This document shows positions 6,521-21,802 of a DNA stretch of 64,000 nucleotides, piece by piece. Both the position numbers and the translations under genes were made by a program. Within the stretch, counting starts at the first letter, position 1. Every line of letters starts with the position of its first letter. The notes under the pieces are model-generated. The model ran no database searches. It was not told the origin of the DNA and was given only the letters and a program-made list of their open reading frames with translations. This DNA is from Candidatus Amesbacteria bacterium GW2011_GWB1_47_19 (GTDB lineage: Bacteria > Patescibacteriota > Microgenomatia > CAZETR01 > Amesbacteraceae), in contig LCNZ01000005.1 in NCBI GenBank assembly GCA_001002325.1, forward strand, positions 18,274 to 82,273, given 5' to 3'.

Positions 6521-6925
6521 TCATTTCAATTCCGCCGGGCGGAACTTGTAGCCGTATATTAACATTCCCCGTTCATCGCCGTCCTGTCTGAGGCGGCGGG
6601 TGACCATTTCCACCGGAGTACCTATTTCCACGGGTTCTTTGCCCAAATCAGTAAGTTGGGCCGTCACTAAAGGGCCTTCCGCAAGTTTAATTAGGGCCAC
6701 CACATAGGGGGCGTTCTCCTCAAATCCGACCGGAGCATCATATACAGTGGTAAAAGAATATACTTCTCCCATACCGGAAAACCGGTACGGGGTCTCGGCT
6801 GTGTTTTTACAATAGGGACATATATCCCGGGGAGGAAAAATTTTAGTCTCACAGTGAGGGCAAATTTCACCGATCAGTTTGTACCGCTGGTTTTTCAGGC
6901 GCCAATGGCGGGGGATCTCCATCAT
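6521..6925 (-). CDS. DUF35-like Zn-ribbon plus OB-fold protein
   Basis: CxxC...CxxC zinc ribbon (CPHC, CPYC) followed by an OB-fold segment. This is the pattern of DUF35_N/DUF35 proteins that normally partner thiolase/HMG-CoA synthase. No such partner is present in the window. Confidence 0.65.
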   Translation of the reverse strand: MMEIPRHWRLKNQRYKLIGEICPHCETKIFPPRDICPYCKNTAETPYRFSGMGEVYSFTTVYDAPVGFEENAPYVVALIKLAEGPLVTAQLTDLGKEPVEIGTPVEMVTRRLRQDGDERGMLIYGYKFRPAELK

Positions 6926-7049
6926 CTGTTAGACGAAAAACCGAATATAAACCCACGGCAGGGTTGACAGATAAGACAATCAGAGTTAAGATGTGACCAC
7001 ACTCTTGTAACAGAGAGTGGAGATGACCCGCAAGGGAAATCTCACGAAA

Positions 7050-7078
7050 AGCCCGACCGCAAGGCCGGGTTTTTCAAA
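7050..7078. terminator. GC hairpin with flanking T/A runs, probable terminator downstream of tRNA-Leu(TAG)
   Basis: The sequence aagcccgaccgcaaggccgggttttt forms a stem-loop followed by a U-run. Read on the minus strand it follows the tRNA. Confidence 0.35.
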
Positions 7079-7080
7079 TG

Positions 7081-7161
7081 TGTCGGAGAGAGGAGTCGAA
7101 CCTCCATGGGTTACCCCACAGGTTCCTAAAACCTGCGCGTCTGCCATTTCGCCACTCCGAC
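7081..7161 (-). tRNA. tRNA-Leu (anticodon TAG), type II long variable arm
   Basis: Cloverleaf folded by hand. Acceptor is gtcggag/ctccgac, anticodon stem caggt/acctg with loop tttagga, and T-loop ttcgact. Confidence 0.75.
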
Positions 7162-7244
7162 GCGGATACGCTCATATCGGAAACCTCTTTCCTTTCGCTT
7201 TCGCTCAAGGTTTCTCCGATATATCTCGCTATGCTCGCTATAAA

Positions 7245-7287
7245 GCGCGCGCCTGCCTGCCGGCAGGCAGGTCTGCCAGTTCCGCCA
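7245..7287 (-). repeat. orphan tRNA-Leu 5' fragment interrupted by a 20-bp palindrome
   Basis: gcgcgc + CCTGCCTGCCGGCAGGCAGG (7252-7271) + tctgccagttccgcca. The last segment matches nt 1-23 of tRNA-Leu(CAG) at 9617-9700, not the adjacent tRNA-Leu(TAG). Confidence 0.6.
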
Positions 7288-7316
7288 TCGCCGCCCGTAA
7301 TTTGAGTATATTTTAC

Positions 7317-7358
7317 CAAAAAAAAGCCCCGGCTCCTGCCCGATGCCGAGGCTTTTTG
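7317..7358. terminator. bidirectional rho-independent terminator candidate
   Basis: An A-run, then gccccggctcctgcccgatgccgaggc hairpin, then a T-run. It lies downstream of the minus-strand methyltransferase gene. Confidence 0.4.
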
Positions 7359-7411
7359 GAAATTCCACCGTCCCGATTTTCATCGGAACCGCGGAACCTG
7401 ACGGGATTGTA

Positions 7412-8173
7412 CTATGATAGCGGATTAATGTCAACTCTATGGGATAATATAAACAGACTGGGACCAAAATAAACATGGGAAAGAAGCGGTTGGGAAAAAT
7501 ACTCCAGGATTAACAGCAGATGTCGGGGAAGAAATTTTTTAAGCTTTTGATAACGAAAATTGGATACGGAAAGGACGGTATCGACAAAAAACCCTGACCT
7601 TCGAAGTGATTTGATGACTGCCAGGGGATGATGATTGACAAAAGGTATAGACATCTTTTTGATGTTTTGGAGACTGCGTTTTTCAAGCGGAGTAAGCGGT
7701 ATCCGGGGACCGAAAAACAAACTGCGGAAACGGGATTTGAAGTTTTGGGAGTTGGCAAATTCCAGGATGAACCGACCACCGGGCGTTAGGAGGCGGTGAA
7801 TTTCGGTAAAGGTGGGTACGAGATCGGGCAAATGATGGGCAACCCGGATTAAGAGAGCCAGGTTTACCGATTGGGGATAAAGACGGATTTTCTGGGCAGA
7901 ACCGGACATAATGAAAATATTTTTATTTTTTTTGAGTTTGATGCGTGCCTGACGGCGGTGGTTCGCCGACGGGTCGACCAGAATAATCCGGGTACAGAAT
8001 TTTGTGAGCAGAGGTTCCAAACGGCCAAATCCTCCGCCAATATCGGCACAAACAGGAAAATTGCTGCCGGACAGTAAACGGTTTAAAGCTACGATTTCAG
8101 CCTGATGTTCGTAATCACGATTTTTCCAGTAATCGAGGTAGGAAAAATCCGGATCGTCGTAATGGTGAGTCAT
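7412..8173 (-). CDS. Class I SAM-dependent methyltransferase
   Basis: Motif I VCADIGGGFGR and motif post-II PGGRFIL. Confidence 0.75.
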   Translation of the reverse strand: MTHHYDDPDFSYLDYWKNRDYEHQAEIVALNRLLSGSNFPVCADIGGGFGRLEPLLTKFCTRIILVDPSANHRRQARIKLKKNKNIFIMSGSAQKIRLYPQSVNLALLIRVAHHLPDLVPTFTEIHRLLTPGGRFILEFANSQNFKSRFRSLFFGPRIPLTPLEKRSLQNIKKMSIPFVNHHPLAVIKSLRRSGFFVDTVLSVSNFRYQKLKKFLPRHLLLILEYFSQPLLSHVYFGPSLFILSHRVDINPLS

Positions 8174-8184
8174 GGGGAAAGCGG

Positions 8185-8754
8185 CTATTCCAAATCAGTC
8201 AAAAATTGGTTGATAGCTTTGGCCCAGGCACCGTCTTTTTCCAGGGAGGGAGGGGTATATTTCGCCATTATTTCCTCGGGTGTATCCAGTCCCTGGTCGA
8301 TATATTTACGTTTCAGGGTTTTGGCGACTGTTTCCATGGCTTCGGGGTAATTTCTGAAGCGGATAACCTGGTCGCCGTAGATGCCATATCCCCAGCAATT
8401 GTGTGACTCTTTGGGAATAATTTTACAGAGGTTGGACTCCTGTCGGGCGATGGCCACCAACAACCGATAATCAAGACGATATTTATCCGAAATGGCAATT
8501 ATCTGATCGGAATACGGTTCCAGAGGTGATCCATATCGGTGAAGATACCTGCGGATTGACAAAGCCCGAGCGTCTGAATAAGTAAATGCTGCGGACAAAT
8601 AGGGGGTGAATTCGGGAGATGAAATTCCCAAGACTTCCGGGGAAAAGGGTGAAGCCGGAACAATTGGCAAAGACATAAAAAGCAGCCTGACCGTGCCAAG
8701 AAACAAAAGGGGTAGCCCCAGGAAAAAAGTGCCTAGCCAAAATATACGGCGCAT
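8185..8754 (-). CDS. hypothetical secreted protein, possible peptidoglycan hydrolase-like
   Basis: N-terminal TM/signal. The QESNLC...NCWGYGI segment loosely resembles the SLT-type catalytic-Glu region. Weak call. Confidence 0.3.
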   Translation of the reverse strand: MRRIFWLGTFFLGLPLLFLGTVRLLFMSLPIVPASPFSPEVLGISSPEFTPYLSAAFTYSDARALSIRRYLHRYGSPLEPYSDQIIAISDKYRLDYRLLVAIARQESNLCKIIPKESHNCWGYGIYGDQVIRFRNYPEAMETVAKTLKRKYIDQGLDTPEEIMAKYTPPSLEKDGAWAKAINQFLTDLE

Positions 8755-8760
8755 AATTTT

Positions 8761-8806
8761 GAGCGGCTAAGGGGAATCGAACCCCTGTCACCCCGCCATG
8801 GCGGGG
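8761..8806 (-). repeat. duplicated 3' 30 nt of tRNA-Gly(GCC) followed by 16-bp perfect palindrome
   Basis: 8761-8790 is identical to 9072-9101. It is immediately followed by CCCCGCCATGGCGGGG (8791-8806). Confidence 0.75.
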
Positions 8807-8816
8807 AGTTCAGCTA

Positions 8817-9065
8817 TTAACAAGTATTACCTAGTAACCGCTTCATGGCATTTCCGCCTTTGTAAGATTTTAGCACTTTTTCTCTTTGTTTAGCTTCGAT
8901 GGGGATGGAATATTCTTCTTTATAAATTAGGATCCACTCCCCTCTCCTGCGAGTTGAAATATTTTGACCACGATTGTGTTCGGATAGACGACGGGATATA
9001 TCGTTGGTACTACCTATGTAATGCCGACCTGAGTAAGTATTTCTGAGAATGTATGTATAGAACAT
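8817..9065 (-). CDS. GIY-YIG nuclease family mini-protein
   Basis: YTYIL...GRHYIGST...RRLSEHN, the GIY-YIG core and Arg/Glu-His motif. 82 aa. Confidence 0.8.
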   Translation of the reverse strand: MFYTYILRNTYSGRHYIGSTNDISRRLSEHNRGQNISTRRRGEWILIYKEEYSIPIEAKQREKVLKSYKGGNAMKRLLGNTC

Positions 9066-9072
9066 TCTAATG

Positions 9073-9143
9073 AGCGGCTAAGGGGAATCGAACCCCTGTC
9101 ATCTCCTTGGCAAGGAGAAGTTCTACCATTGAACCATAGCCGC
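9073..9143 (-). tRNA. tRNA-Gly (anticodon GCC)
   Basis: Acceptor gcggcta/tagccgc, anticodon loop ttGCCaa, T-loop ttcgatt. Confidence 0.85.
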
Positions 9144-9147
9144 AGTG

Positions 9148-9220
9148 TGCCGAGAGCTGGAGTCGAACCAGCATCTGACGCTCTTCAGGCGCCCGCCGTA
9201 ACCACCTTGGCTATCTCGGC
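9148..9220 (-). tRNA. tRNA-Phe (anticodon GAA)
   Basis: Acceptor gccgaga/tctcggc, anticodon loop ctGAAga, T-arm gctggttcgactccagc. Confidence 0.85.
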
Positions 9221-9295
9221 GAAGGAATGAAATGACTGAGCTGAGATACAGCGTAAGTCGTATCTCGGCAAGGAACGAGCTTCAGTTGGATTTTA

Positions 9296-9478
9296 CTACA
9301 TCCGGGGAGGGCTTAAACAGTATCCAGTGCGGTCTCTCCCTTTTTTTAAAAATCTAAAATCTGTATTAAATAGTTTATCAACTTGAGCCGCGGATGGTCT
9401 AATACCTGTATTTTTTTCCACCAAATCTTGAAAATTAGATATTATTTCTTCCCGAAGTTGTTCTTGGGAGGTAGCCAT
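9296..9478 (-). CDS. hypothetical small ORF (60 aa)
   Basis: ORF only. Sits between tRNA-Phe and tRNA-Val. No similarity recognised. Confidence 0.2.
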   Translation of the reverse strand: MATSQEQLREEIISNFQDLVEKNTGIRPSAAQVDKLFNTDFRFLKKGRDRTGYCLSPPRM

Positions 9479-9523
9479 TTATTGATTGTATACCTGGGGT
9501 CAATAGTTGCTGACGCTGTCTGG

Positions 9524-9597
9524 TGGACGATGAGGGACTCGAACCCCCGACCCCCGCTGTGTAAAAGCGATGCTCTAACCAGCTGAGCTAATCGTCC
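9524..9597 (-). tRNA. tRNA-Val (anticodon TAC), CCA encoded
   Basis: Acceptor ggacgat/atcgtcc, anticodon loop ttTACac, T-arm gggggttcgagtccctc, followed by cca. Confidence 0.85.
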
Positions 9598-9616
9598 TGA
9601 GATTATATTACAGCTG

Positions 9617-9700
9617 TGGGCAAGAGAGGACTTGAACCTCCACTCCCTTGCGGGAACAGGCTCCTGAAGCCTGCGCGTCTGCCAGTTCCGCCACTTGCCC
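9617..9700 (-). tRNA. tRNA-Leu (anticodon CAG), type II
   Basis: Acceptor gggcaag/cttgccc, anticodon stem caggc/gcctg with loop ttCAGga, long variable arm, T-loop ttcaagt. Confidence 0.85.
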
Positions 9701-9945
9701 TAGAACTGATTCATGAGCTCCGCAATTATCTCACGTCCGAAACCGGATTTGAAGAATTTCTCAAGATTCCTGGCCTGTATTCTGGTATCGCACTCTTCGA
9801 CGTGAATCAATCGCAACGGCAAATGACCTCTTGTGGAGGGCGATTTACCACTTTCGTGTTGATACAGGCGTCTTTGTAAGTTGTTGGTTATCCCTTTGTA
9901 AATGAATTTATCCCCGTAACTTTGAAGGATATAAACAAAATACAT
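9700..9945 (-). CDS. GIY-YIG nuclease family mini-protein
   Basis: MYFVYILQS...KFIYKGITNNLQRRLYQHE. The stop codon overlaps nt 1 of tRNA-Leu(CAG). Confidence 0.8.
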   Translation of the reverse strand: MYFVYILQSYGDKFIYKGITNNLQRRLYQHESGKSPSTRGHLPLRLIHVEECDTRIQARNLEKFFKSGFGREIIAELMNQF

Positions 9946-9948
9946 GTT

Positions 9949-10073
9949 TGAAGCCTGCGCGCCTGCCTGCCGGCAGGCAGGTCTGCCAGTTCCGCCACTT
10001 GCCCTAGAACTGATTCATGAGCTCCGCAATTATCTCACGTCCGAAACCGGATTTGAAGAATTTCTCAAGATTC
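9949..10073 (-). repeat. direct repeat of 9665-9769 (GIY-YIG 3' end plus tRNA-Leu nt 1-36) with inserted 20-bp palindrome
   Basis: 13 + 92 nt are identical to 9665-9677 and 9678-9769. Perfect palindrome CCTGCCTGCCGGCAGGCAGG at 9962-9981 sits between them. Confidence 0.8.
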
Positions 10074-10194
10074 TTATGAGAAAAATGAATCAATCAAACT
10101 GCTTATATTGATGTACCCAAACCAAAATGTCATATGTCTTACGCGAAAAAAATATAAAATTGTCAATTCATTGGGTATAATTAAGAAAGTAGGA

Positions 10195-10278
10195 GCCGGG
10201 ATGCTGAAACTGGTAGACAGGCATGCTTGAGGGGCATGTGTCAGCAATGGCGTGGAGGTTCGAGTCCTCTTCCCGGCA
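10195..10278 (+). tRNA. tRNA-Leu (anticodon GAG), type II
   Basis: Acceptor gccggga/tcccggc, anticodon stem catgc/gcatg with loop ttGAGgg, long variable arm. Confidence 0.8.
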
Positions 10279-10282
10279 CACT

Positions 10283-10366
10283 GCCGGGGTGGCGAAATGG
10301 TAGACGCAAGGGCCTTAAGAGCCCTCGGTCCAAAAGACCATGCGAGTTCGAGTCTCGCCCCCGGCA
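10283..10366 (+). tRNA. tRNA-Leu (anticodon TAA), type II
   Basis: Acceptor gccgggg/ccccggc, anticodon stem agggc/gccct with loop ctTAAga, T-arm gcgagttcgagtctcgc. Confidence 0.85.
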
Positions 10367-10368
10367 CA

Positions 10369-10764
10369 ATGAGTTTTGAGTGTGTTAATTGTCATTACCT
10401 GGTACGGGAAGGTAAAAGATATGCCGGGACGGAAAACAGAAACCATTGCACGAAATGTTTGTGGTCATTGCATGCGGATTTAAGACCTGGTGACAGAAAA
10501 GCATTGTGCGGAGGAAAAATGAATCCCGCGGGGCTTACTTTTAAGCGGGTGAAAAAAGATAAGTACGGGAAAGAAAAGGTTGGAGAATTGATGCTAGTAC
10601 ACCAATGCGTAAAATGCCTAGAAGTATCAATAAACAGGATTGCGGCGGATGACGACCCGGTGGAAATAATGAATCTCGTAAATTCCGGTTTTTCTGTTGA
10701 AGGAATCAGTGTGCTGGATGAGGCTGACAGGTCGGAAGTACGCAGGCAGCTATTCGGGGTGTAA
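10369..10764 (+). CDS. RNHCP-domain zinc-ribbon protein
   Basis: Literal RNHCTKC signature plus additional CxxC pairs. The ATG lies 2 nt after tRNA-Leu(TAA). The ORF-track upstream extension from 10252 covers two tRNAs and is rejected. Confidence 0.6.
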   Translation: MSFECVNCHYLVREGKRYAGTENRNHCTKCLWSLHADLRPGDRKALCGGKMNPAGLTFKRVKKDKYGKEKVGELMLVHQCVKCLEVSINRIAADDDPVEIMNLVNSGFSVEGISVLDEADRSEVRRQLFGV

Positions 10765-10775
10765 AATTATAAACA

Positions 10776-10848
10776 CGGAGAGTGGCGCAGCTGGTAGCGC
10801 GCATCGTTTGGGACGATGAGGCCCCGGGTTCGAGTCCCGGCTCTCCGA
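10776..10848 (+). tRNA. tRNA-Pro (anticodon TGG)
   Basis: Acceptor cggagag/ctctccg, anticodon stem catcg/cgatg with loop ttTGGga, T-arm ccgggttcgagtcccgg. Confidence 0.85.
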
Positions 10849-10904
10849 CAAAGTTGAGGCGAAGTTTATTTTTAGCGTGAAATGGTTTAGGATATTGTCA
10901 GAGT

Positions 10905-11345
10905 ATGTGGAAAAAATCGTGGGGAGTGTTTGTAGGTGCGGGACTGGTAGCCGGTTTGTTGCCGGTGATGGTCTGGGGGGTTAGTTCCGGAACCAGGACA
11001 CTGTTCTCCACCCGGGCTCAGACACATGAACTGAGATTATGGTGGGAGCCGGCGGAAGCGACCCTGCGGATAGATCAGGCGATGAAATTTAAGCTGATGG
11101 CAAATGTTGAAAGTAAAAACGGAATTCCGGCACTGGAAATGGAATTGGATATCCCCAAGGGGATACTTGTAGCCCCGAAGATTGTCAGATACGGTAAACT
11201 TATCGGTACCTCAGTGGTCGGTGAAGTGGATGTAGTGGCGGTAAACCAGGGAGATTTTTTGATTGGTATCATAGAAGACAAAGTAGTTACCGGCTATCCT
11301 GATATCACCATAATAGCCTCTCCGGTAAAAATCAAAGTCAGGTAA
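10905..11345 (+). CDS. hypothetical secreted protein (first gene of pilin-like operon)
   Basis: N-terminal signal/TM. Ends 4 nt before the next gene. Confidence 0.45.
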   Translation: MWKKSWGVFVGAGLVAGLLPVMVWGVSSGTRTLFSTRAQTHELRLWWEPAEATLRIDQAMKFKLMANVESKNGIPALEMELDIPKGILVAPKIVRYGKLIGTSVVGEVDVVAVNQGDFLIGIIEDKVVTGYPDITIIASPVKIKVR

Positions 11346-11348
11346 AGT

Positions 11349-11795
11349 ATGAAGTTCAAGCCTGCCCTGTCCCTGATCGAATTATTGCTGGTAGTATCGC
11401 TGATCGGCATTCTGTCGCTGCCGGGAGTATTGGGAATAATTAATATCAGAGCCCGCCAGTCACTGGATGTATCTACTAACAAGTTTGCCGAGATTATGCG
11501 ACAAGCCCACATTTTTTCGAGGGAAAACAGAGAAAGTTTGAGTTGGGGAGTAAAAGGAACCGATAAGAATAGTTACCAACTGGTGACCCGGGATGCGACC
11601 AAGACAGTGACAGTCAGGGAAAAGCACAGACTGGAATCGCCGACAGTTTTTATAATTTATCCGTTTGAAGTGTGGTTTGACCAGGGAACGGGAAATACCG
11701 AAATCAACCGGATTTTCATGACCTATGCGTCCAAGGGCGGTACCCGAGTGGTGGGTTTGTCCCCGACCGGTTTAGTAGTTATCGGTATCCTATGA
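11349..11795 (+). CDS. Type IV pilin-like protein (prepilin-type N-terminal domain)
   Basis: N-terminus MKFKPA|LSLIELLLVVSLIGIL is a class III signal. Ala, not Gly, sits at position -1. Confidence 0.7.
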   Translation: MKFKPALSLIELLLVVSLIGILSLPGVLGIINIRARQSLDVSTNKFAEIMRQAHIFSRENRESLSWGVKGTDKNSYQLVTRDATKTVTVREKHRLESPTVFIIYPFEVWFDQGTGNTEINRIFMTYASKGGTRVVGLSPTGLVVIGIL

Positions 11796-12283
11796 AACCC
11801 CGGGCGTTTACAATAATTGAAGTTGTACTGGCGATAACTCTTTTAATCATTTTGGTAACCAGCGTATATCCCCTGGTGGGATGGATGAGAACCAAATCGA
11901 TACGTCTGCAATACGACAGCCAGGCAGCGCTGGTACTTCAGGAAGGGATGGAGGCGGCATACAGCGTTATGATGTCCGACTGGAGCGGCTTTCCTCCCGG
12001 ACCGGGTTATTTTTATCCGATAATTGATGCGTCTTCGGGAACACCAGTCTGGAAGCTGACTGCCGGAATACAATCTAATTATCAGGCCAGGTTTGAAAGA
12101 AAAATACTGATATCCCAGGTATGCCGGAGGCTGGTAACCGGTCAGATGGAAAATACTCCGTGCCAGGCCGATTATCCTGCCGATCCATACAGCCGGAAAG
12201 TTACAACCACCGTAAGCTGGAGGGAATCAGGAAAAACCAAGAGTATTAACGCCCAATTATTAACGGTGAGTATAAACCGATGA
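11792..12283 (+). CDS. Type IV pilin-like protein (prepilin-type N-terminal domain)
   Basis: MKPRA|FTIIEVVLAITLLIIL. ATGA overlap with the upstream gene. Confidence 0.7.
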   Translation: MKPRAFTIIEVVLAITLLIILVTSVYPLVGWMRTKSIRLQYDSQAALVLQEGMEAAYSVMMSDWSGFPPGPGYFYPIIDASSGTPVWKLTAGIQSNYQARFERKILISQVCRRLVTGQMENTPCQADYPADPYSRKVTTTVSWRESGKTKSINAQLLTVSINR

Positions 12284-12726
12284 AGAAGGGAATATCTCTA
12301 ATAGAATTGTTAATTGCCATGGCGCTGGCGGTGTTTGTATTTTTGCTGGTGATATCGATGCTGATGACAATACTAACGGCAAATGCCAGAAGCAGCCGGC
12401 AGGAGACGTTTGAGCAGACAAAAAACGATTTGCAGAGCGAGCTGACAAACGCTGTTAAATGGGGTAAGGATATCAGCTGGTCTTCAGGACAGCTGATCGT
12501 AGACGGTGTAGCGTATTCGAGGATCAGCAATGTGATAATAAAAAACGGACAGTTGTTGACGCCACCGCAAGTCAAAATCACCAACTGGACAATAACCGAG
12601 TTGGGGCAGGGAGATCCGAACATCAGTTTGCGCATGGAAATAGCTATGGAAAACGCAGCTAACAGCAGTATTAAAGACAACATGATTTTGACAGTTACAA
12701 AAAGGCAGACGATCATTGTGAAATGA
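12280..12726 (+). CDS. Type IV pilin-like protein (prepilin-type N-terminal domain)
   Basis: MKKG|ISLIELLIAMALAVFVF. ATGA overlap with the upstream gene. Confidence 0.7.
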   Translation: MKKGISLIELLIAMALAVFVFLLVISMLMTILTANARSSRQETFEQTKNDLQSELTNAVKWGKDISWSSGQLIVDGVAYSRISNVIIKNGQLLTPPQVKITNWTITELGQGDPNISLRMEIAMENAANSSIKDNMILTVTKRQTIIVK

Positions 12727-14021
12727 AAACCATGCGAAATACCAACGGTGTTGCTGTGATGATGCTGGTGCTGGTAGTGTCCATGATAGCGGCTTTTATG
12801 GCCATTGCCTGGCAGTCACGGATTTTATTGGGGGTATACAGGAATAAAGCCCTGTCGGACATTATTGCCGTTTCTTACCATGGGGAGTCCAAGGCCAATG
12901 ACATCCTGGGCAAATTCCTGGGAGATTATCCGGGGGCATTTACTTATAATTTTGAAACTCCATGGGAAGATTTGGGAGACGGAACACAATTGAAAGTCGA
13001 GGGAAAACTGATTGATAATAAGGAAACACTAAATATTACAGCCAAGCGAACGTATGCCAGCACCCAATATCAGGTTACCAGGGAGACGGAAACTTTTTCG
13101 GCGGAAGCTTCGGATGCCGAGATAGTATTTTCGCTGGACTGCACGGGATCCATGGCAGCTGCCGCTTGTGCGGATACAAATATTTGCAATTACCAGCCTC
13201 CCGGGAGTCCGTTTTACGCGATTACCAGGATGGACAAACTGAAAGAGGCCTTGATTGTTTTTCTGGACAAGCTGGAAGCGCTTCCAGGGCATGAAAAAAT
13301 AAAGATCGGACTCTCAGTGTTTACATTAAAGAGCGACTGGATGTATACCAGCTACGCTGCGGACGGAACCCCGACCGGACAGGCAATAAAACCCGATAAT
13401 GCGATATCGTCAGATATTCCGGCTATTAAAAGCGCCGTCAATAACTTTCTGGGAAGAAGCGGTGAAGAGCACAGTATGGCTTGTAAAAAAATTCTGACCT
13501 TTACGAATGTAGGAGGGGGACTGATTTTCGCCCATGACTACCTGAAGACCAGAAAACCACTGGGAAAGAAACAGATAGAAATATTGGTTACCGACGGCTG
13601 GTCTAATCAGAGAACTCCACACGCGGGATGCAGCCAAAATATTTTTTGCCCCGGGGATGCGATTTATTGCAGCGGCTATGGTTATACCTGCCCGGTTCCA
13701 TTACCGAACTGTCAGATGCATGGTTGGGAGTTTACAGCCTGTGCGCTGGCAAGTACCCAGCAACAATGGCAACCTATATCTTTTGCGTCCGATCCCTGGC
13801 CTGTCGGAGTACGTGACCCTGAGGTTGATATGTATACGGTGGGTGTATATTCTGATCCGCCTAATTATATAAATTCGGCATTCACCAATTTTTCAAATAA
13901 GTATTTTCAGAATGATGAGGCTTTTCAATTACCGGTTATATTGTCGGATATTTTTGATGAAATATTAGAAAGTTTTACAGTAATTAATGTTCAGCGACTG
14001 GTACCTTCGCCGATAAGATAA
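12723..14021 (+). CDS. von Willebrand factor type A domain protein with N-terminal TM (pilus-associated adhesin-like)
   Basis: MIDAS motif DCTGSM (DxSxS) and downstream TDG. N-terminal hydrophobic helix. ATGA overlap with the last pilin-like gene. Confidence 0.7.
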   Translation: MKTMRNTNGVAVMMLVLVVSMIAAFMAIAWQSRILLGVYRNKALSDIIAVSYHGESKANDILGKFLGDYPGAFTYNFETPWEDLGDGTQLKVEGKLIDNKETLNITAKRTYASTQYQVTRETETFSAEASDAEIVFSLDCTGSMAAAACADTNICNYQPPGSPFYAITRMDKLKEALIVFLDKLEALPGHEKIKIGLSVFTLKSDWMYTSYAADGTPTGQAIKPDNAISSDIPAIKSAVNNFLGRSGEEHSMACKKILTFTNVGGGLIFAHDYLKTRKPLGKKQIEILVTDGWSNQRTPHAGCSQNIFCPGDAIYCSGYGYTCPVPLPNCQMHGWEFTACALASTQQQWQPISFASDPWPVGVRDPEVDMYTVGVYSDPPNYINSAFTNFSNKYFQNDEAFQLPVILSDIFDEILESFTVINVQRLVPSPIR

Positions 14022-14046
14022 AATGGGTTATAATTCTTCGGGAATT

Positions 14047-14088
14047 GCGGGTGTAGCTCAATGGCAGACCTGCCTGTCGGCAGGCAGG
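14047..14088 (+). repeat. 5' 22 nt of tRNA-Gly(TCC) followed by 20-bp near-palindrome
   Basis: 14047-14068 gcgggtgtagctcaatggcaga is identical to 14341-14362. Then CCTGCCTGTCGGCAGGCAGG at 14069-14088. Confidence 0.75.
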
Positions 14089-14108
14089 GAGCCAGAACTT
14101 TGATTTTA

Positions 14109-14327
14109 ATGAAAAGGTATTTTGTATATATCACCCGCAGTAAATCAACCGGCAGATTTTATACCGGTATGACAAACGACTTGCAAAGAAGGTTAAAACA
14201 GCATAACCGACTAACATCAAATACCCTTGCTACAAGGAAATTGACCGACTTTGAAATTGTTTACAAAGAAATGCAACAAAGCAGAGCAGAAGCAAGAAAA
14301 GTAGAGAGTTTCGTGACAAAATTGTAA
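14109..14327 (+). CDS. GIY-YIG nuclease family mini-protein
   Basis: MKRYFVYITRSKSTGRFYTGMTNDLQRRLKQHN. The ORF-track start at 14061 lies inside the tRNA fragment/palindrome. The ATG at 14109 is preferred. Confidence 0.75.
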   Translation: MKRYFVYITRSKSTGRFYTGMTNDLQRRLKQHNRLTSNTLATRKLTDFEIVYKEMQQSRAEARKVESFVTKL

Positions 14328-14340
14328 AATTCGGTAGCAT

Positions 14341-14411
14341 GCGGGTGTAGCTCAATGGCAGAGCGCCAGTTTTCCAAACTGGTGACGAGGGTCCGATTCC
14401 CTTCACCCGCT
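14341..14411 (+). tRNA. tRNA-Gly (anticodon TCC)
   Basis: Acceptor gcgggtg/cacccgc, anticodon stem ccagt/actgg with loop ttTCCaa, T-loop tccgatt. Confidence 0.85.
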
Positions 14412-14561
14412 CAATAGCGAAATGGTTTTGTGTTTTCTCCAATTTTCCTCAAGAAATCGATCTTTTCCCGAGTTCTAGCCACCATTTTTAGCGTTTTATC
14501 TTTGGCCTGGAAAAAATCATACCGGTAACCGGAGTCGGACCTAATTTGTAGAAAAAATGAG

Positions 14562-15377
14562 TCAGTTTATACTGGAAACTCGCATCCAAATCGGATAATG
14601 GTCAGATAGATTTCCGTATTTTTCGTCAGTTATAACCTTGAATTCTTCTAGTTTTATCAGGTTGTTTCCGAAAGCATAATCTAATCTGAGTATAGGCTCA
14701 TTTACGGGAAGCGGAAATAATTTTGCCGGAACTGTGTCACCTTTTCCTTTACCAAGATCAACAAAACCTGCATTTGTAAGTATTTTCGTTACTTCGCCTC
14801 GTTTCATCTCGTTAAGTGATCCCTTCATACTTTTCATAGGTCCGGGGAATTTACGACCTAATGTCTCTAATTGTTTGTCGGTTTCTGCTAAATCATCATT
14901 ATCAAAGGTGTTTAAATCCCCTGTAATTATCGTTGGAGTGTTTGGGTTGACTAATTTTAATACTGCCTCGATTTGTTTAATTCTAGTATCTTCACTGACA
15001 TCGTCTAAATAGACTGAAAATATATCTATTCCACCAACCTTAGTTCTAATCGCATTTCTGGTAGCAAGCCAAATAGTTTGAATTTCCGTTTCGGCGATTT
15101 GAGAGAAAACAGTAATACCATTGTCATGTCCTTTTGTTACTAATCTTTGATCTTCTAGCTTTACTGTGTGCACGTAGGGGTATCCAAATATTTGTTTTAA
15201 CTCATCTGGTGTAAAAACTTCTGTCCATCTATGGGTATCAACTAAACTGACAATATCTGGGTTCAAATCTTTGATGACACTAGCTAAACCATCAATTCGT
15301 TCAGGTCTTTTTTCTGGGCTGCCATAATCTTTAAAACCACCACTTAAAATATTCCAAGACAAAATTTCTGTTGACAT
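14562..15377 (-). CDS. Endonuclease/exonuclease/phosphatase (EEP) family protein
   Basis: N-terminal SWNIL..GG, a D/N-rich core and C-terminal SDHYPI, all typical of the EEP fold. Start chosen at MSTEIL. Confidence 0.7.
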   Translation of the reverse strand: MSTEILSWNILSGGFKDYGSPEKRPERIDGLASVIKDLNPDIVSLVDTHRWTEVFTPDELKQIFGYPYVHTVKLEDQRLVTKGHDNGITVFSQIAETEIQTIWLATRNAIRTKVGGIDIFSVYLDDVSEDTRIKQIEAVLKLVNPNTPTIITGDLNTFDNDDLAETDKQLETLGRKFPGPMKSMKGSLNEMKRGEVTKILTNAGFVDLGKGKGDTVPAKLFPLPVNEPILRLDYAFGNNLIKLEEFKVITDEKYGNLSDHYPIWMRVSSIN

Positions 15378-21407: not shown

Positions 21408-21698
21408 TTAGGACATCTTTAAAGTGTTTTTCAAAATTTGTTTTAGTTGATTGTGACCGTAGCCACTTTTTAGATATATTTCTCTAGCTTCGGCATCTTG
21501 ACGATTTTGAAAATATTCGTAATGAATTAATTTTAAAGGTCGGCGGGTTTTGGTGGAATCGACTTTGCCTAAATTGTGATCTTGTAGGCGACGCTTTAAA
21601 TCGTTGGTGAAGCCAATATAAAGTTTTAAATCTTTTTGAGATTGAAGGACATAGACGTAGTATTTGTTTGTAAAAACGTCGGACGTTTTTGTAGGCAT
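21408..21698 (-). CDS. GIY-YIG nuclease family mini-protein
   Basis: KYYVYVLQS...LKLYIGFTNDLKRRLQDHN. Confidence 0.8.
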   Translation of the reverse strand: MPTKTSDVFTNKYYVYVLQSQKDLKLYIGFTNDLKRRLQDHNLGKVDSTKTRRPLKLIHYEYFQNRQDAEAREIYLKSGYGHNQLKQILKNTLKMS

Positions 21699-21729
21699 AA
21701 GTTCGGATGTCCCGTCAAACGGGACTATG

Positions 21730-21802
21730 GGTGGATGACGGGTGATGCTCCCGCTACCTCCGCATCCACAGTGCGGCGCTCTACTGATGAGCTACATCCA
21801 CC
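21730..21802 (-). tRNA. tRNA-His (anticodon GTG) with encoded G-1
   Basis: Extra 5' G, acceptor gtggatg/catccac, discriminator C, anticodon loop ctGTGga. The T-loop reads agcatca, which is atypical, so moderate confidence. Confidence 0.65.

Follow-up and report, generated by a model that had tools for sequence, protein, structure and literature searches.

A minimal GIY-YIG nuclease gene and a conserved palindrome within tRNA genes of Candidatus Amesbacteria: probable copies of a selfish homing-type cassette

In the genome of the uncultured groundwater bacterium Candidatus Amesbacteria GW2011_GWB1_47_19, the gene of the glycine transfer RNA (tRNA) with the anticodon TCC is accompanied by a displaced copy of its own 5' end, a GC-rich palindrome of 20 nucleotides (nt) and a very small open reading frame (ORF) of the GIY-YIG nuclease family. 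This arrangement, called locus C here, was analysed within a stretch of 64,000 nt of contig LCNZ01000005.1 (GCA_001002325.1), which is referred to as the window. Locus C probably represents a family of minute selfish cassettes of the homing type, in which the gene of an Slx1/UPF0213-type nuclease lies within a tRNA gene. The cassette would separate a promoter-bearing 5' stub of the tRNA from a complete tRNA copy, and the palindrome, named PAL in the following (perfect form CCTGCCTGCCGGCAGGCAGG), would belong to the cassette.

The order of the elements at locus C is given in Table 1. The displaced stub comprises the acceptor 5' strand, the D-stem 5' strand and the D-loop of tRNA-Gly(TCC), and its 22-mer GCGGGTGTAGCTCAATGGCAGA is present in exactly two copies in the window (14047-14068 and 14341-14362), where chance would give none. 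The intact tRNA begins 13 nt after the stop codon and is the only copy of the TCC isoacceptor in the window (14341-14412). An initial annotation of this DNA had described an exact 22-nt copy of the tRNA 5' end followed by a 20-bp near-palindrome (14069-14088), and further a GIY-YIG ORF of 72 amino acids (aa) with the complete tRNA behind it. Both descriptions hold, the latter by Pfam (E=2.3e-12), ARAGORN and Rfam, with the start codon now placed at 14109. Since about 7 nt behind PAL (gagccag, 14089-14095) resemble the next tRNA positions, the stub extends beyond the palindrome. The perfect form of PAL occurs in the window at 7252-7271 and 9962-9981, and six matches to the palindrome on both strands stand against 0.00 expected.

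Furthermore, the same stretch, one single-nucleotide polymorphism apart, is found in two assemblies from other samples (L243, JGI 3300009285; L244, ENA SRR2177362). Because these independent assemblies carry the same arrangement, the mosaic is not an assembly artefact, and the loss of the fragment upon re-assembly, named initially as a possible refutation, did not occur.

The program-made ORF list had started the gene at 14061, a start which was suspected early on to be artificial. The 88-aa reading from this position has 16 extra residues, which are translated tRNA D-loop and PAL. The first residue of the Pfam domain is number 20 in this version and number 4 in the 72-aa reading, and the relatives all open directly with M-(x)-Y-F-V-Y-I. 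Among the 149 best family representatives from a library of 1.8 billion proteins, 19 contain peptides encoded by PAL, in all three frames (PACRQA, LPAGRQ, CLPAGR), 16 of them at the N-terminus and three at the C-terminus. Because it is read in all three frames and at either terminus, PAL is non-coding DNA through which gene callers often read, and the suspicion about 14061 is borne out. The database entry P0060 (88 aa) is the locus C gene with this read-through start. GIY-YIG entries of about 100-125 aa with PACRQA, LPAGRQ or CLPAGR extensions at the N- or C-terminus are P0002, P0003, P0060 and P0143-P0289; here, the extension is often preceded by a translated tRNA D-arm, e.g. GVAQLVD, and these extensions are annotation artefacts.

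Table 1. Features of the GIY-YIG/tRNA loci in the 64-kb window (positions count from the first letter of the window).
Feature	Position	Strand	Remarks
Locus C, putative -10 box TATAAT	14029-14034	+	12 nt upstream of the tRNA stub; read from the sequence
Locus C, displaced 5' stub of tRNA-Gly(TCC)	14047-14068	+	tRNA nt 1-22, identity 22/22
Locus C, PAL CCTGCCTGTCGGCAGGCAGG	14069-14088	+	GC-rich palindrome of 20 nt within the stub's D-arm; differs from CCTGCCTGCCGGCAGGCAGG by C9>T
Locus C, tRNA relic and AT-rich spacer	14089-14108	+	relic gagccag 14089-14095; start codon 20 nt past PAL
Locus C, GIY-YIG ORF, 72 aa	14109-14327	+	ATG 14109, TAA 14327; Pfam PF01541
Locus C, -10-like hexamer TAAAAT	14325-14330	+	overlaps the ORF stop codon, 10 nt before the intact tRNA
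Locus C, intact tRNA-Gly(TCC)	14341-14412	+	ARAGORN and Rfam (70.3 bits)
Locus B, tRNA-Leu(CAG)	9616-10073	-	same architecture as locus C
Locus B, C-terminus remnant of an older ORF	10073-10005	-	
Locus B, stub nt 1-23	10004-9982	-	
Locus B, PAL	9981-9962	-	
Locus B, relic cgcgcaggcttca	9961-9949	-	13 further tRNA nt up to the anticodon, then aacATG
Locus B, GIY-YIG ORF, 81 aa	9945-9700	-	the G of its TAG stop codon is also position 1 of the tRNA
Locus B, extended -10-like gtgagataat	9722-9730	-	same position in L001, L128, L133, L136, L139, L142, L155, L160, L163
Locus B, tRNA-Leu(CAG)	9700-9616	-	
Locus A, decayed copy	7080-7291	-	Leu-type stub, PAL 7252-7271, ~88-nt remnant, tRNA-Leu(TAG) 7161-7080
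Locus D, mirror form	8760-9143	-	tRNA-Gly(GCC) 9143-9072 intact, 82-aa GIY-YIG ORF 9065-8817
Locus D, palindrome CCCCGCCATGGCGGGG	8806-8791	-	different from PAL
Locus D, copy of the tRNA 3' end	8790-8760	-	exact, 31 nt
Locus E	21408-21801	-	tRNA-His 21801-21729, hairpin gtcccgtttgacgggac, 96-aa GIY-YIG ORF 21698-21408

Locus C is one of five GIY-YIG/tRNA loci in the window (A-E). The organisation had been described as the same as at the Leu(CAG) locus, and indeed stub, PAL, relic, ORF and tRNA follow each other at locus B in this order. Here, the ORF's C-terminal portion together with tRNA nt 1-21 forms an exact repeat of 93 nt, from which it follows that the stub was once preceded by another copy of the ORF. 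At locus A, the remnant of about 88 nt is still similar to the C-terminal coding region of the GIY-YIG genes, and 41 nt are identical to locus B. Locus E carries a GIY-YIG gene of another subfamily directly after tRNA-His, without PAL. A scan of positions 6900-14600 against Rfam gave tRNAs only, with no group I intron or other non-tRNA family at E<=1. As a side observation, nine tRNA genes on both strands are crowded into 3.8 kb (7080-10850), interleaved with three of the GIY-YIG loci, and the pair tRNA-Leu(GAG) and tRNA-Leu(TAA) among them (10195-10367) is free of any cassette.

Comparison with related genomes revealed polymorphism of these loci. In L247, locus B is unchanged. At locus D of this genome nothing is inserted between the tRNA-Gly(GCC) and the gene downstream of it, and because of this empty site, locus D represents an insertion of 311 bp. 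At locus A, L247 contains a different GIY-YIG gene and a tRNA-Leu(TAG) of different sequence, with the upstream flank shared. GIY-YIG proteins of about 70% identity adjoin different tRNAs, namely Val-CAC, Leu-TAG and Lys-TTT. At the position of locus C, L249 has a neighbouring Exo_endo_phos gene of 89% identity and the same intergenic sequence, where a tRNA-Gly(CCC) of different sequence is present without ORF, stub or PAL; L250 has no tRNA there. Neither of the two is a clean empty site, since synteny with both genomes is lost on the left side of locus C. On sequence grounds, the recurrence of the locus, the polymorphism in L247 and L249 and the varied tRNA partners support mobility over a single rearrangement. 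The same was proposed in the initial annotation, and five loci in the window, at least 14 anticodons among the relatives and the empty and swapped sites of L247 bear it out.

The geometry of the arrangement was followed in a scan of JGI metagenome contigs, from which 80 of 490 confirmed relatives were kept, 76 of them with enough flanking sequence. PAL is located at most 120 nt upstream of the ORF in 42 of these 76 relatives and is nearly always the perfect 20-mer. In 34 of the 76, a tRNA on the same strand begins 0-18 nt past the stop codon, with at least 14 anticodons represented (Leu with five anticodons, Asn, Lys, Gly, Cys, Val, Glu, His, Gln and Ser). An upstream PAL always lies within the D-arm of a tRNA 5' stub, at a variable position (after nt 11 to 24). 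The length of the stub beyond PAL (10.9 +/- 4.5 nt) and the distance from PAL to the ATG (median 19.5 nt, interquartile range 16-24) are both independent of the position of PAL in the tRNA. In 23 of 45 loci, the part of the stub that precedes PAL matches the 5' end of the local tRNA without a difference. Mirror forms account for six of the 76 relatives; here, PAL is present 10-26 nt past the stop codon in a displaced 3' piece (T-loop, variable loop or D-loop). Thus, relative to the ORF, PAL is always on the side opposite to the intact tRNA and always within the displaced copy. Where a GIY-YIG gene lacks PAL, its place is often taken by a degenerate version of it, by a palindrome nested within PAL or by some other GC-rich hairpin.

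In several loci (L003, L005, L128, L161 and, without an ORF, L031), the acceptor strand of the upstream stub is complementary to that of a 3' fragment located downstream. This indicates an older tRNA gene that was split by an insert bearing the ORF and a whole tRNA gene. Two near-identical contigs (L006:1757-1850 and L005:1757-1841) have stub, PAL and ORF in common. In L006 the tRNA-Leu is chimeric from the variable arm on, its acceptor strands are unpaired (gccttcg versus ccccggc) and ARAGORN finds no tRNA; either recombination has produced a dead tRNA here, or the contig is a chimera of the assembly. PAL itself is also found in tandem, with three diverged copies in L003:1422-1486 and two in the near-identical L004, so that the copy number of PAL varies between close relatives. 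In L214:2773-2825, two perfect copies are 13 nt apart.

PAL is perfect in 39 of 48 GIY-YIG loci, the proteins of which are only 41-66% identical. Neutral non-coding DNA would be conserved far less, so that either selection acts on PAL or every transfer regenerates it. In the commonest variant, CCTGTCTGCCGACAGGCAGG, positions 5 and 12 are both changed, which replaces C-G by T-A in the 6-bp register CCTGYC-TGCC-GRCAGG-CAGG; this compensatory change speaks for a hairpin formed by one strand. Read along the ORF strand, the remaining changes are for the most part C>T in the 5' arm (nine events), and the mirror change G>A in the 3' arm occurs only at position 12. Tolerance of G.U pairs in a hairpin of the sense-strand RNA would give this asymmetry, in a sample that is small and phylogenetically non-independent. 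The predicted fold of PAL is an 8-bp stem with a tetraloop. It had been suggested that the fragment and the palindrome could fold together as a transcribed hairpin upstream of the start codon. The hairpin of PAL is indeed robust, but it is the sole robust element, and a structure of the whole leader RNA at locus C was rejected (z = -1.46). In the predicted fold of this leader, the AUG is unpaired. Judged by these features, PAL appears as a required cis element of the cassette, most likely a hairpin in the sense-strand RNA or in single-stranded DNA at the outer end of the cassette, which would be recognised in a sequence-specific manner.

The proteins belong clearly to the GIY-YIG family, with Pfam PF01541 scores of 47.5 bits (E=2.3e-12) for locus C, 52.4 for locus B and 54.8 for locus D at a cut-off of 22.6. 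The residues Y5, Y16, G18, R26, H30, E50 and E62 are invariant in 37 sequences, locus C included. An AlphaFold (AF2) model has a predicted local distance difference test score of 95.3 and displays the order strand, strand, helix, strand, helix, helix. A profile of the 37 members searched against the PDB hit the UPF0213 proteins EF2693 (1ywl, 1.6e-11) and BH0048 (1zg2, 1e-10) and then Slx1 (1e-4). In a Foldseek search with the model, 1zg2 and Slx1 occupy ranks 1-8 and the catalytic domain of I-TevI follows at rank 13. The proteins of this clade in the window consist of 72-82 aa, i.e. the catalytic domain only, without auxiliary domains. By profile and predicted fold, the nuclease is a stand-alone Slx1/UPF0213-type domain and not of the I-TevI/SegB type. 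A SegB-like seg endonuclease was also rejected for the domain-only architecture and for scores of 23-26 bits in NCBIfam grpIintron_endo, the cut-off of which is 56. The family is large, with 23,725 cluster representatives at E<=1e-3, and the relatives of the locus B protein are proteins of the candidate phyla radiation (CPR), several of them near 100 aa in length.

Three points go beyond the initial annotation: PAL is a conserved 20-mer that crosses phyla, it is located within the displaced tRNA piece and not at its edge, and the nuclease is Slx1/UPF0213-like.

Signals for transcription are found at both ends of the cassette. Of 28 comparable loci, eight have a perfect TATAAT 3-22 nt upstream of the stub, and in 16 a hexamer there agrees with it in five or more of the six positions. 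Because -10 boxes precede the stubs, the stub appears to retain the tRNA promoter. From its match to the consensus, the TATAAT of locus C is presumed to be the original promoter of the tRNA and is now likely the promoter of the GIY-YIG ORF; a simple promoter scan did not list it, for no -35 box passed the rule of that scan. At the other end, the sequence TGAGATAAT lies 20-25 nt before the intact tRNA in about nine loci and represents the codons of the conserved C-terminal GREII motif, which can be read as an extended -10 element. It is identical at synonymous positions although the proteins are only about 55-65% identical, and it may, by its consensus match, be an internal tRNA promoter. Locus C has no GREII motif; here, the TAAAAT at the stop codon may serve as the tRNA's own promoter. 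The overlap of the stop codon TAG with the G of tRNA position 1, found in the window (9700-9702, minus strand), is also present in L001, L002, L146 and L153. In these cases, processing by RNase P would leave an mRNA without a stop codon, which is a possible built-in limit on the expression of the nuclease.

The genes upstream of locus C are of a different kind. Five ORFs on the same strand (10905-14021) look like an operon of a type IV pilus or pseudopilus. The middle three have pilin-like hydrophobic N-termini (e.g. LIELL), and the last, directly upstream of locus C, encodes a protein of 432 aa. The synteny of this region with relatives stops exactly at the tRNA-Gly locus.

How would such a cassette spread? 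In the model we favour, the predicted nuclease would cut a cassette-free tRNA gene. Since it has no DNA-binding domain, recognition of a structure or loop, as in Slx1, is probable. Recombinational repair from a cassette-bearing copy would then bring in the ORF along with a second copy of the tRNA segment that is displaced. Due to this duplication, the essential tRNA stays intact and the insert is hard for the host to lose. Breaks induced by the nuclease could also yield local tandem repeats, as known for phage SegB, and locus B resembles such a product. The ORF would be transcribed from the -10 box of the tRNA through the stub and PAL and translated from 14109, and the cut of RNase P at tRNA position +1 would define the 3' end of the mRNA. 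In addition, PAL necessarily interrupts the D-arm (or T-arm) of the displaced tRNA copy, and most likely it thus destroys the D-arm target in the stub.

PAL is not restricted to these loci. A scan with the pattern CCTGNCWGYCGRCAGGCAGG over one genome per species (596 Gb) gave at least 120 loci (L008-L127). The counts that follow refer to the matches listed. About three quarters of them are the perfect 20-mer, of which about 0.5 would be expected by chance. The hosts comprise at least 10 phyla: Patescibacteria (many classes), Bacteroidota, Omnitrophota, Planctomycetota, Gamma- and 'Delta'-proteobacteria, Nitrospirota, Chloroflexota, Actinomycetota, Bacillota and a cyanobacterium. Cultured Bacteroidota are among them, namely Winogradskyella, Flavobacterium, Flagellimonas, Gaetbulibacter, Zunongwangia and Longitalea. 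Furthermore, 35 virus-like contigs carry PAL (L208-L242), and no true match was found in the INPHARED phages and the PLSDB plasmids. PAL occurs in identical form in Patescibacteria, in Bacteroidota and Planctomycetota, in Proteobacteria and in virus-like contigs, and a short sequence of such wide occurrence must be recognised by something.

Among these matches, PAL is solitary and intergenic in 59 of 69 cases and lies within 600 nt of a tRNA in 16 of 125. The plan of stub, PAL and tRNA without an ORF is present in L008, L031, L035 and L058. All-against-all clustering of 3,025 ORFs revealed no gene family shared near solitary PALs other than the GIY-YIG clade. Eight GIY-YIG genes of this lineage are present in the 1.18 Mb around the PAL sites, five to six of them within about 150 nt of PAL. 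The hosts of these adjacent genes are WWE3, Bdellovibrionales, Bacteroidetes (a mirror form at tRNA-Thr), Thermodesulfobacteriota and a virus-like contig. In the Thermodesulfobacteriota case (L099:3861-3880), PAL, with the GIY-YIG ORF behind it, is located at the end of an hsdS-like frame (specificity subunit of type I restriction) and not in a tRNA gene, so that the module is not strictly bound to tRNA genes. An insertion sequence or miniature inverted-repeat transposable element with target duplication was rejected as an explanation of PAL, given a flanking direct repeat of at least 7 nt at only four of 121 listed sites and the missing shared gene family. PAL as a mini-intron within intact tRNAs was rejected as well, since its removal in silico restores a full tRNA at three of 278 sites. 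The sole convincing case among these 278 is an otherwise complete tRNA-Met of a virus-like contig with PAL in its variable loop (L232:2239-2330), where PAL would form a long extra arm like that of a class II tRNA.

From this distribution, a wider reading can be put forward tentatively, which we regard as possible and still doubtful: PAL and the minimal Slx1-like GIY-YIG nuclease would constitute an undescribed mobile system of many bacterial phyla and some viruses. Here, a predicted structure-specific nuclease of about 80 aa, with a 20-nt hairpin as its cis site, would invade loop positions of tRNA genes, duplicate the displaced segment, by which the essential gene would be preserved, and capture the promoter. 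The solitary PALs would be footprints or non-autonomous derivatives, likened to repetitive extragenic palindromes (REPs), and the GIY-YIG nuclease would be likened to the REP-associated tyrosine transposases (RAYT).

Several points weigh against the homing-type cassette favoured here. Cleavage activity and target are predictions from sequence for every member of the family. The nuclease would be expected to cut the restored intact tRNA gene as well, and the immunity of the occupied allele is not accounted for by the model; neither does it explain by what route the segment of the local tRNA is duplicated whenever a new tRNA is entered. No clean empty site of locus C was found via the Exo_endo_phos orthologues (L249, L250). 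The locus C protein ends before the KSGxGRE motif, which is kept in more than 90% of the clade, while the core residues are retained; because of this truncated C-terminus, the copy may be on the way to decay. A word-indexed search for relatives of this protein found only the conspecific 88-aa call. Finally, most PALs of other phyla are solitary, intergenic and away from tRNAs and GIY-YIG genes, and for this reason PAL may have a life of its own.

This last point leads to the rather unlikely alternative that PAL is an independent, promiscuous palindromic micro-element that enters hairpin loops and dispensable DNA. The stubs would then be permissive, loop-rich landing sites, and PAL would have no tie to the nuclease beyond perhaps the stabilisation of mRNA ends. 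The solitary intergenic copies in at least 10 phyla and in virus-like contigs fit this idea, as do copies at the apex of local inverted repeats or palindromes nested in palindromes (L171/L191, L005) and the phage-like tRNA-Met of L232. Mobile GC-rich palindromes that flank tRNA genes are also described for fungal mitochondria, in a passage of PMC4478555 that cites Yin et al. 1981. Nevertheless, an independent element would not be expected at a near-fixed distance from the ORF (median 19.5 nt) and on a fixed side away from the intact tRNA, nor at 42 of 76 GIY-YIG genes. Where a PAL locus of any phylum contains a GIY-YIG gene, the two are almost always adjacent, and PAL has neither a consistent target duplication (4 of 121 listed sites) nor a transposase-like gene. 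Less probable still is a 'genomic accordion', i.e. local tandem duplication of the GIY-YIG gene and the tRNA 5' part by breaks induced by the nuclease or the palindrome, followed by vertical inheritance and decay. The 93-nt repeat of locus B can be read as a two-unit array with the first ORF deleted, a C-terminal GIY-YIG remnant precedes the stub in L128 and L139, and the ORF of locus C is truncated C-terminally. SegB of phage T6 generates 718-bp repeats composed of tRNA-Tyr and a C-terminally truncated segB (PMC13096335). However, most stubs are preceded by a native-looking -10 box instead of an ORF remnant, and the close relative L247 has an empty site and a swapped cassette. The same clade is found at 14 or more different tRNAs, and the cassette lies between complementary halves of an older tRNA in L003, L005, L128 and L031.

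The idea of a domesticated housekeeping enzyme, either an Slx1-like repair nuclease or an RNA/tRNA-processing factor that is co-transcribed with tRNAs for regulation and leaves the stubs as neutral by-products, is considered very unlikely. It does draw on the literature, and this literature counts against a selfish cassette: in a passage of Dunin-Horkawicz et al. (PMC1564403), the prokaryotic Slx1-like GIY-YIG proteins are minimal domains regarded as vertically inherited housekeeping nucleases, and a fusion with a TrmH-like tRNA methyltransferase is described there as a hint at RNA metabolism. The family of locus C is Slx1/UPF0213-like, and ORF and tRNA are packed so tightly that only co-transcription is possible in most loci. 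In contrast, the 64 kb analysed of this reduced genome contain five paralogues, of which two are decayed or truncated, and this is hard to reconcile with a housekeeping role. Presence and absence differ between close relatives, and many different tRNAs with partial gene duplications are typical of selfish insertions. That the ORF resides in a tRNA intron, of the group I or archaeal type, or that the stub is an assembly artefact, is hardly conceivable. It is true that the stub of locus B ends after anticodon position 35, which corresponds to the 35/36 site of the group I introns of Patescibacteria (PMC13011429). The Rfam scan of 6900-14600 gave only tRNAs, however, the gaps from stub to ATG (3-20 nt) and from stop codon to tRNA (-1 to 18 nt) leave no room for a ribozyme, the tRNA downstream is complete, and three assemblies agree on the arrangement.

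The homing-type cassette would have consequences for annotation and for the view of this nuclease family. If the nuclease indeed drives the cassettes, some members of a family of about 24,000 cluster representatives would have to be re-read as selfish DNA, and the pseudo-fragments of tRNAs and the swapped tRNA genes that recur in CPR genomes would be accounted for. A systematic annotation error is exposed by the proteins with PACRQAG, LPAGRQ or CLPAGR extensions. In the searchable literature, no paper contains the 20-mer PAL, and no report links UPF0213/Slx1-like proteins to tRNA genes, partial gene duplications or a palindrome. Likewise, nothing relevant was found there for GIY-YIG together with Patescibacteria, tRNA or UPF0213, and neither this combination in cellular bacteria nor an Slx1-type nuclease in such a role was found.

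Among the known systems, phage SegB is the best-studied parallel. SegB belongs to the seg homing-endonuclease group of phages and has about 220 aa with a C-terminal DNA-binding region. This GIY-YIG endonuclease of the T4/T6 tRNA cluster cuts the DNA of tRNA genes and is inherited by co-conversion, and it drives tandem units of tRNA-Tyr and C-terminally truncated segB via double-strand breaks and homologous recombination (PMC2330249, PMC13096335). As in our case, the GIY-YIG gene is located directly beside tRNA genes, and the 93-nt repeat of locus B and the truncation of locus C resemble products of SegB. In contrast to SegB, the nuclease described here is a domain of 72-82 aa of the Slx1/UPF0213 lineage, encoded in a cellular CPR genome and in other phyla and not by a phage; a part of the tRNA gene occurs on both sides of the ORF, and a conserved palindrome accompanies it. 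With the Slx1/UPF0213 proteins (EF2693, 1ywl; BH0048, 1zg2), the nuclease shares the minimal domain, and these are its best profile and fold matches. Slx1 is structure-specific and cuts flaps, junctions and stem-loops. By analogy, such a specificity would fit a nuclease tied to a hairpin and to loop positions of tRNA genes.

Free-standing homing endonuclease genes, e.g. the insertion in the mitochondrial atp6 of Allomyces, carry a replacement for the displaced gene end. Here too, a copy of the interrupted segment keeps the gene functional and a pseudo-fragment is left beside it. These examples differ in that they concern protein-coding mitochondrial genes and other nuclease families and have no palindrome. 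Integrase-type tRNA islands, the attL/attR sites of which repeat the 3' end of the tRNA, have in common with the cassettes a direct repeat of a part of the tRNA and an intact tRNA that is kept. The cassettes, however, have no integrase and an insert of about 300 bp, it is usually the 5' part which is duplicated, and the repeat is interrupted by PAL. At locus C, an integrase-type island was rejected, since the insert of about 290 nt holds the GIY-YIG ORF only and no gene of a tyrosine or serine recombinase. The group I introns that Patescibacteria have in their tRNA genes, inserted at 35/36, encode HNH and not GIY-YIG endonucleases (Nakagawa et al., PMC13011429). Phylum and gene type are the same as for our loci, and the junction at locus B is likewise 35/36; the cassettes differ by having no intron RNA and a complete downstream tRNA.

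For PAL, the GC clusters of yeast mitochondria and the PstI palindromes of Neurospora come closest. In a passage of PMC4478555, with reference to Yin et al. 1981, these are described as highly conserved and polymorphic elements that flank tRNA genes, are thought to be mobile and are maybe aided by an endonuclease. As with PAL, these are short GC-rich palindromes which form hairpins and reside in genomes rich in AT. They belong to organelles and are specific to their lineages, with AG target duplications in some cases, whereas PAL is a single 20-mer in many bacterial phyla, without target duplication and tied to one nuclease clade. Thus, the single components all have precedents, i.e. phage GIY-YIG genes beside tRNAs, duplicated gene ends of homing endonucleases, mitochondrial GC palindromes and partial tRNA repeats at islands. 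Here, nuclease, gene-end duplication and palindrome are combined in cellular bacteria with reduced genomes, and the nuclease comes from a lineage that has been treated as housekeeping.

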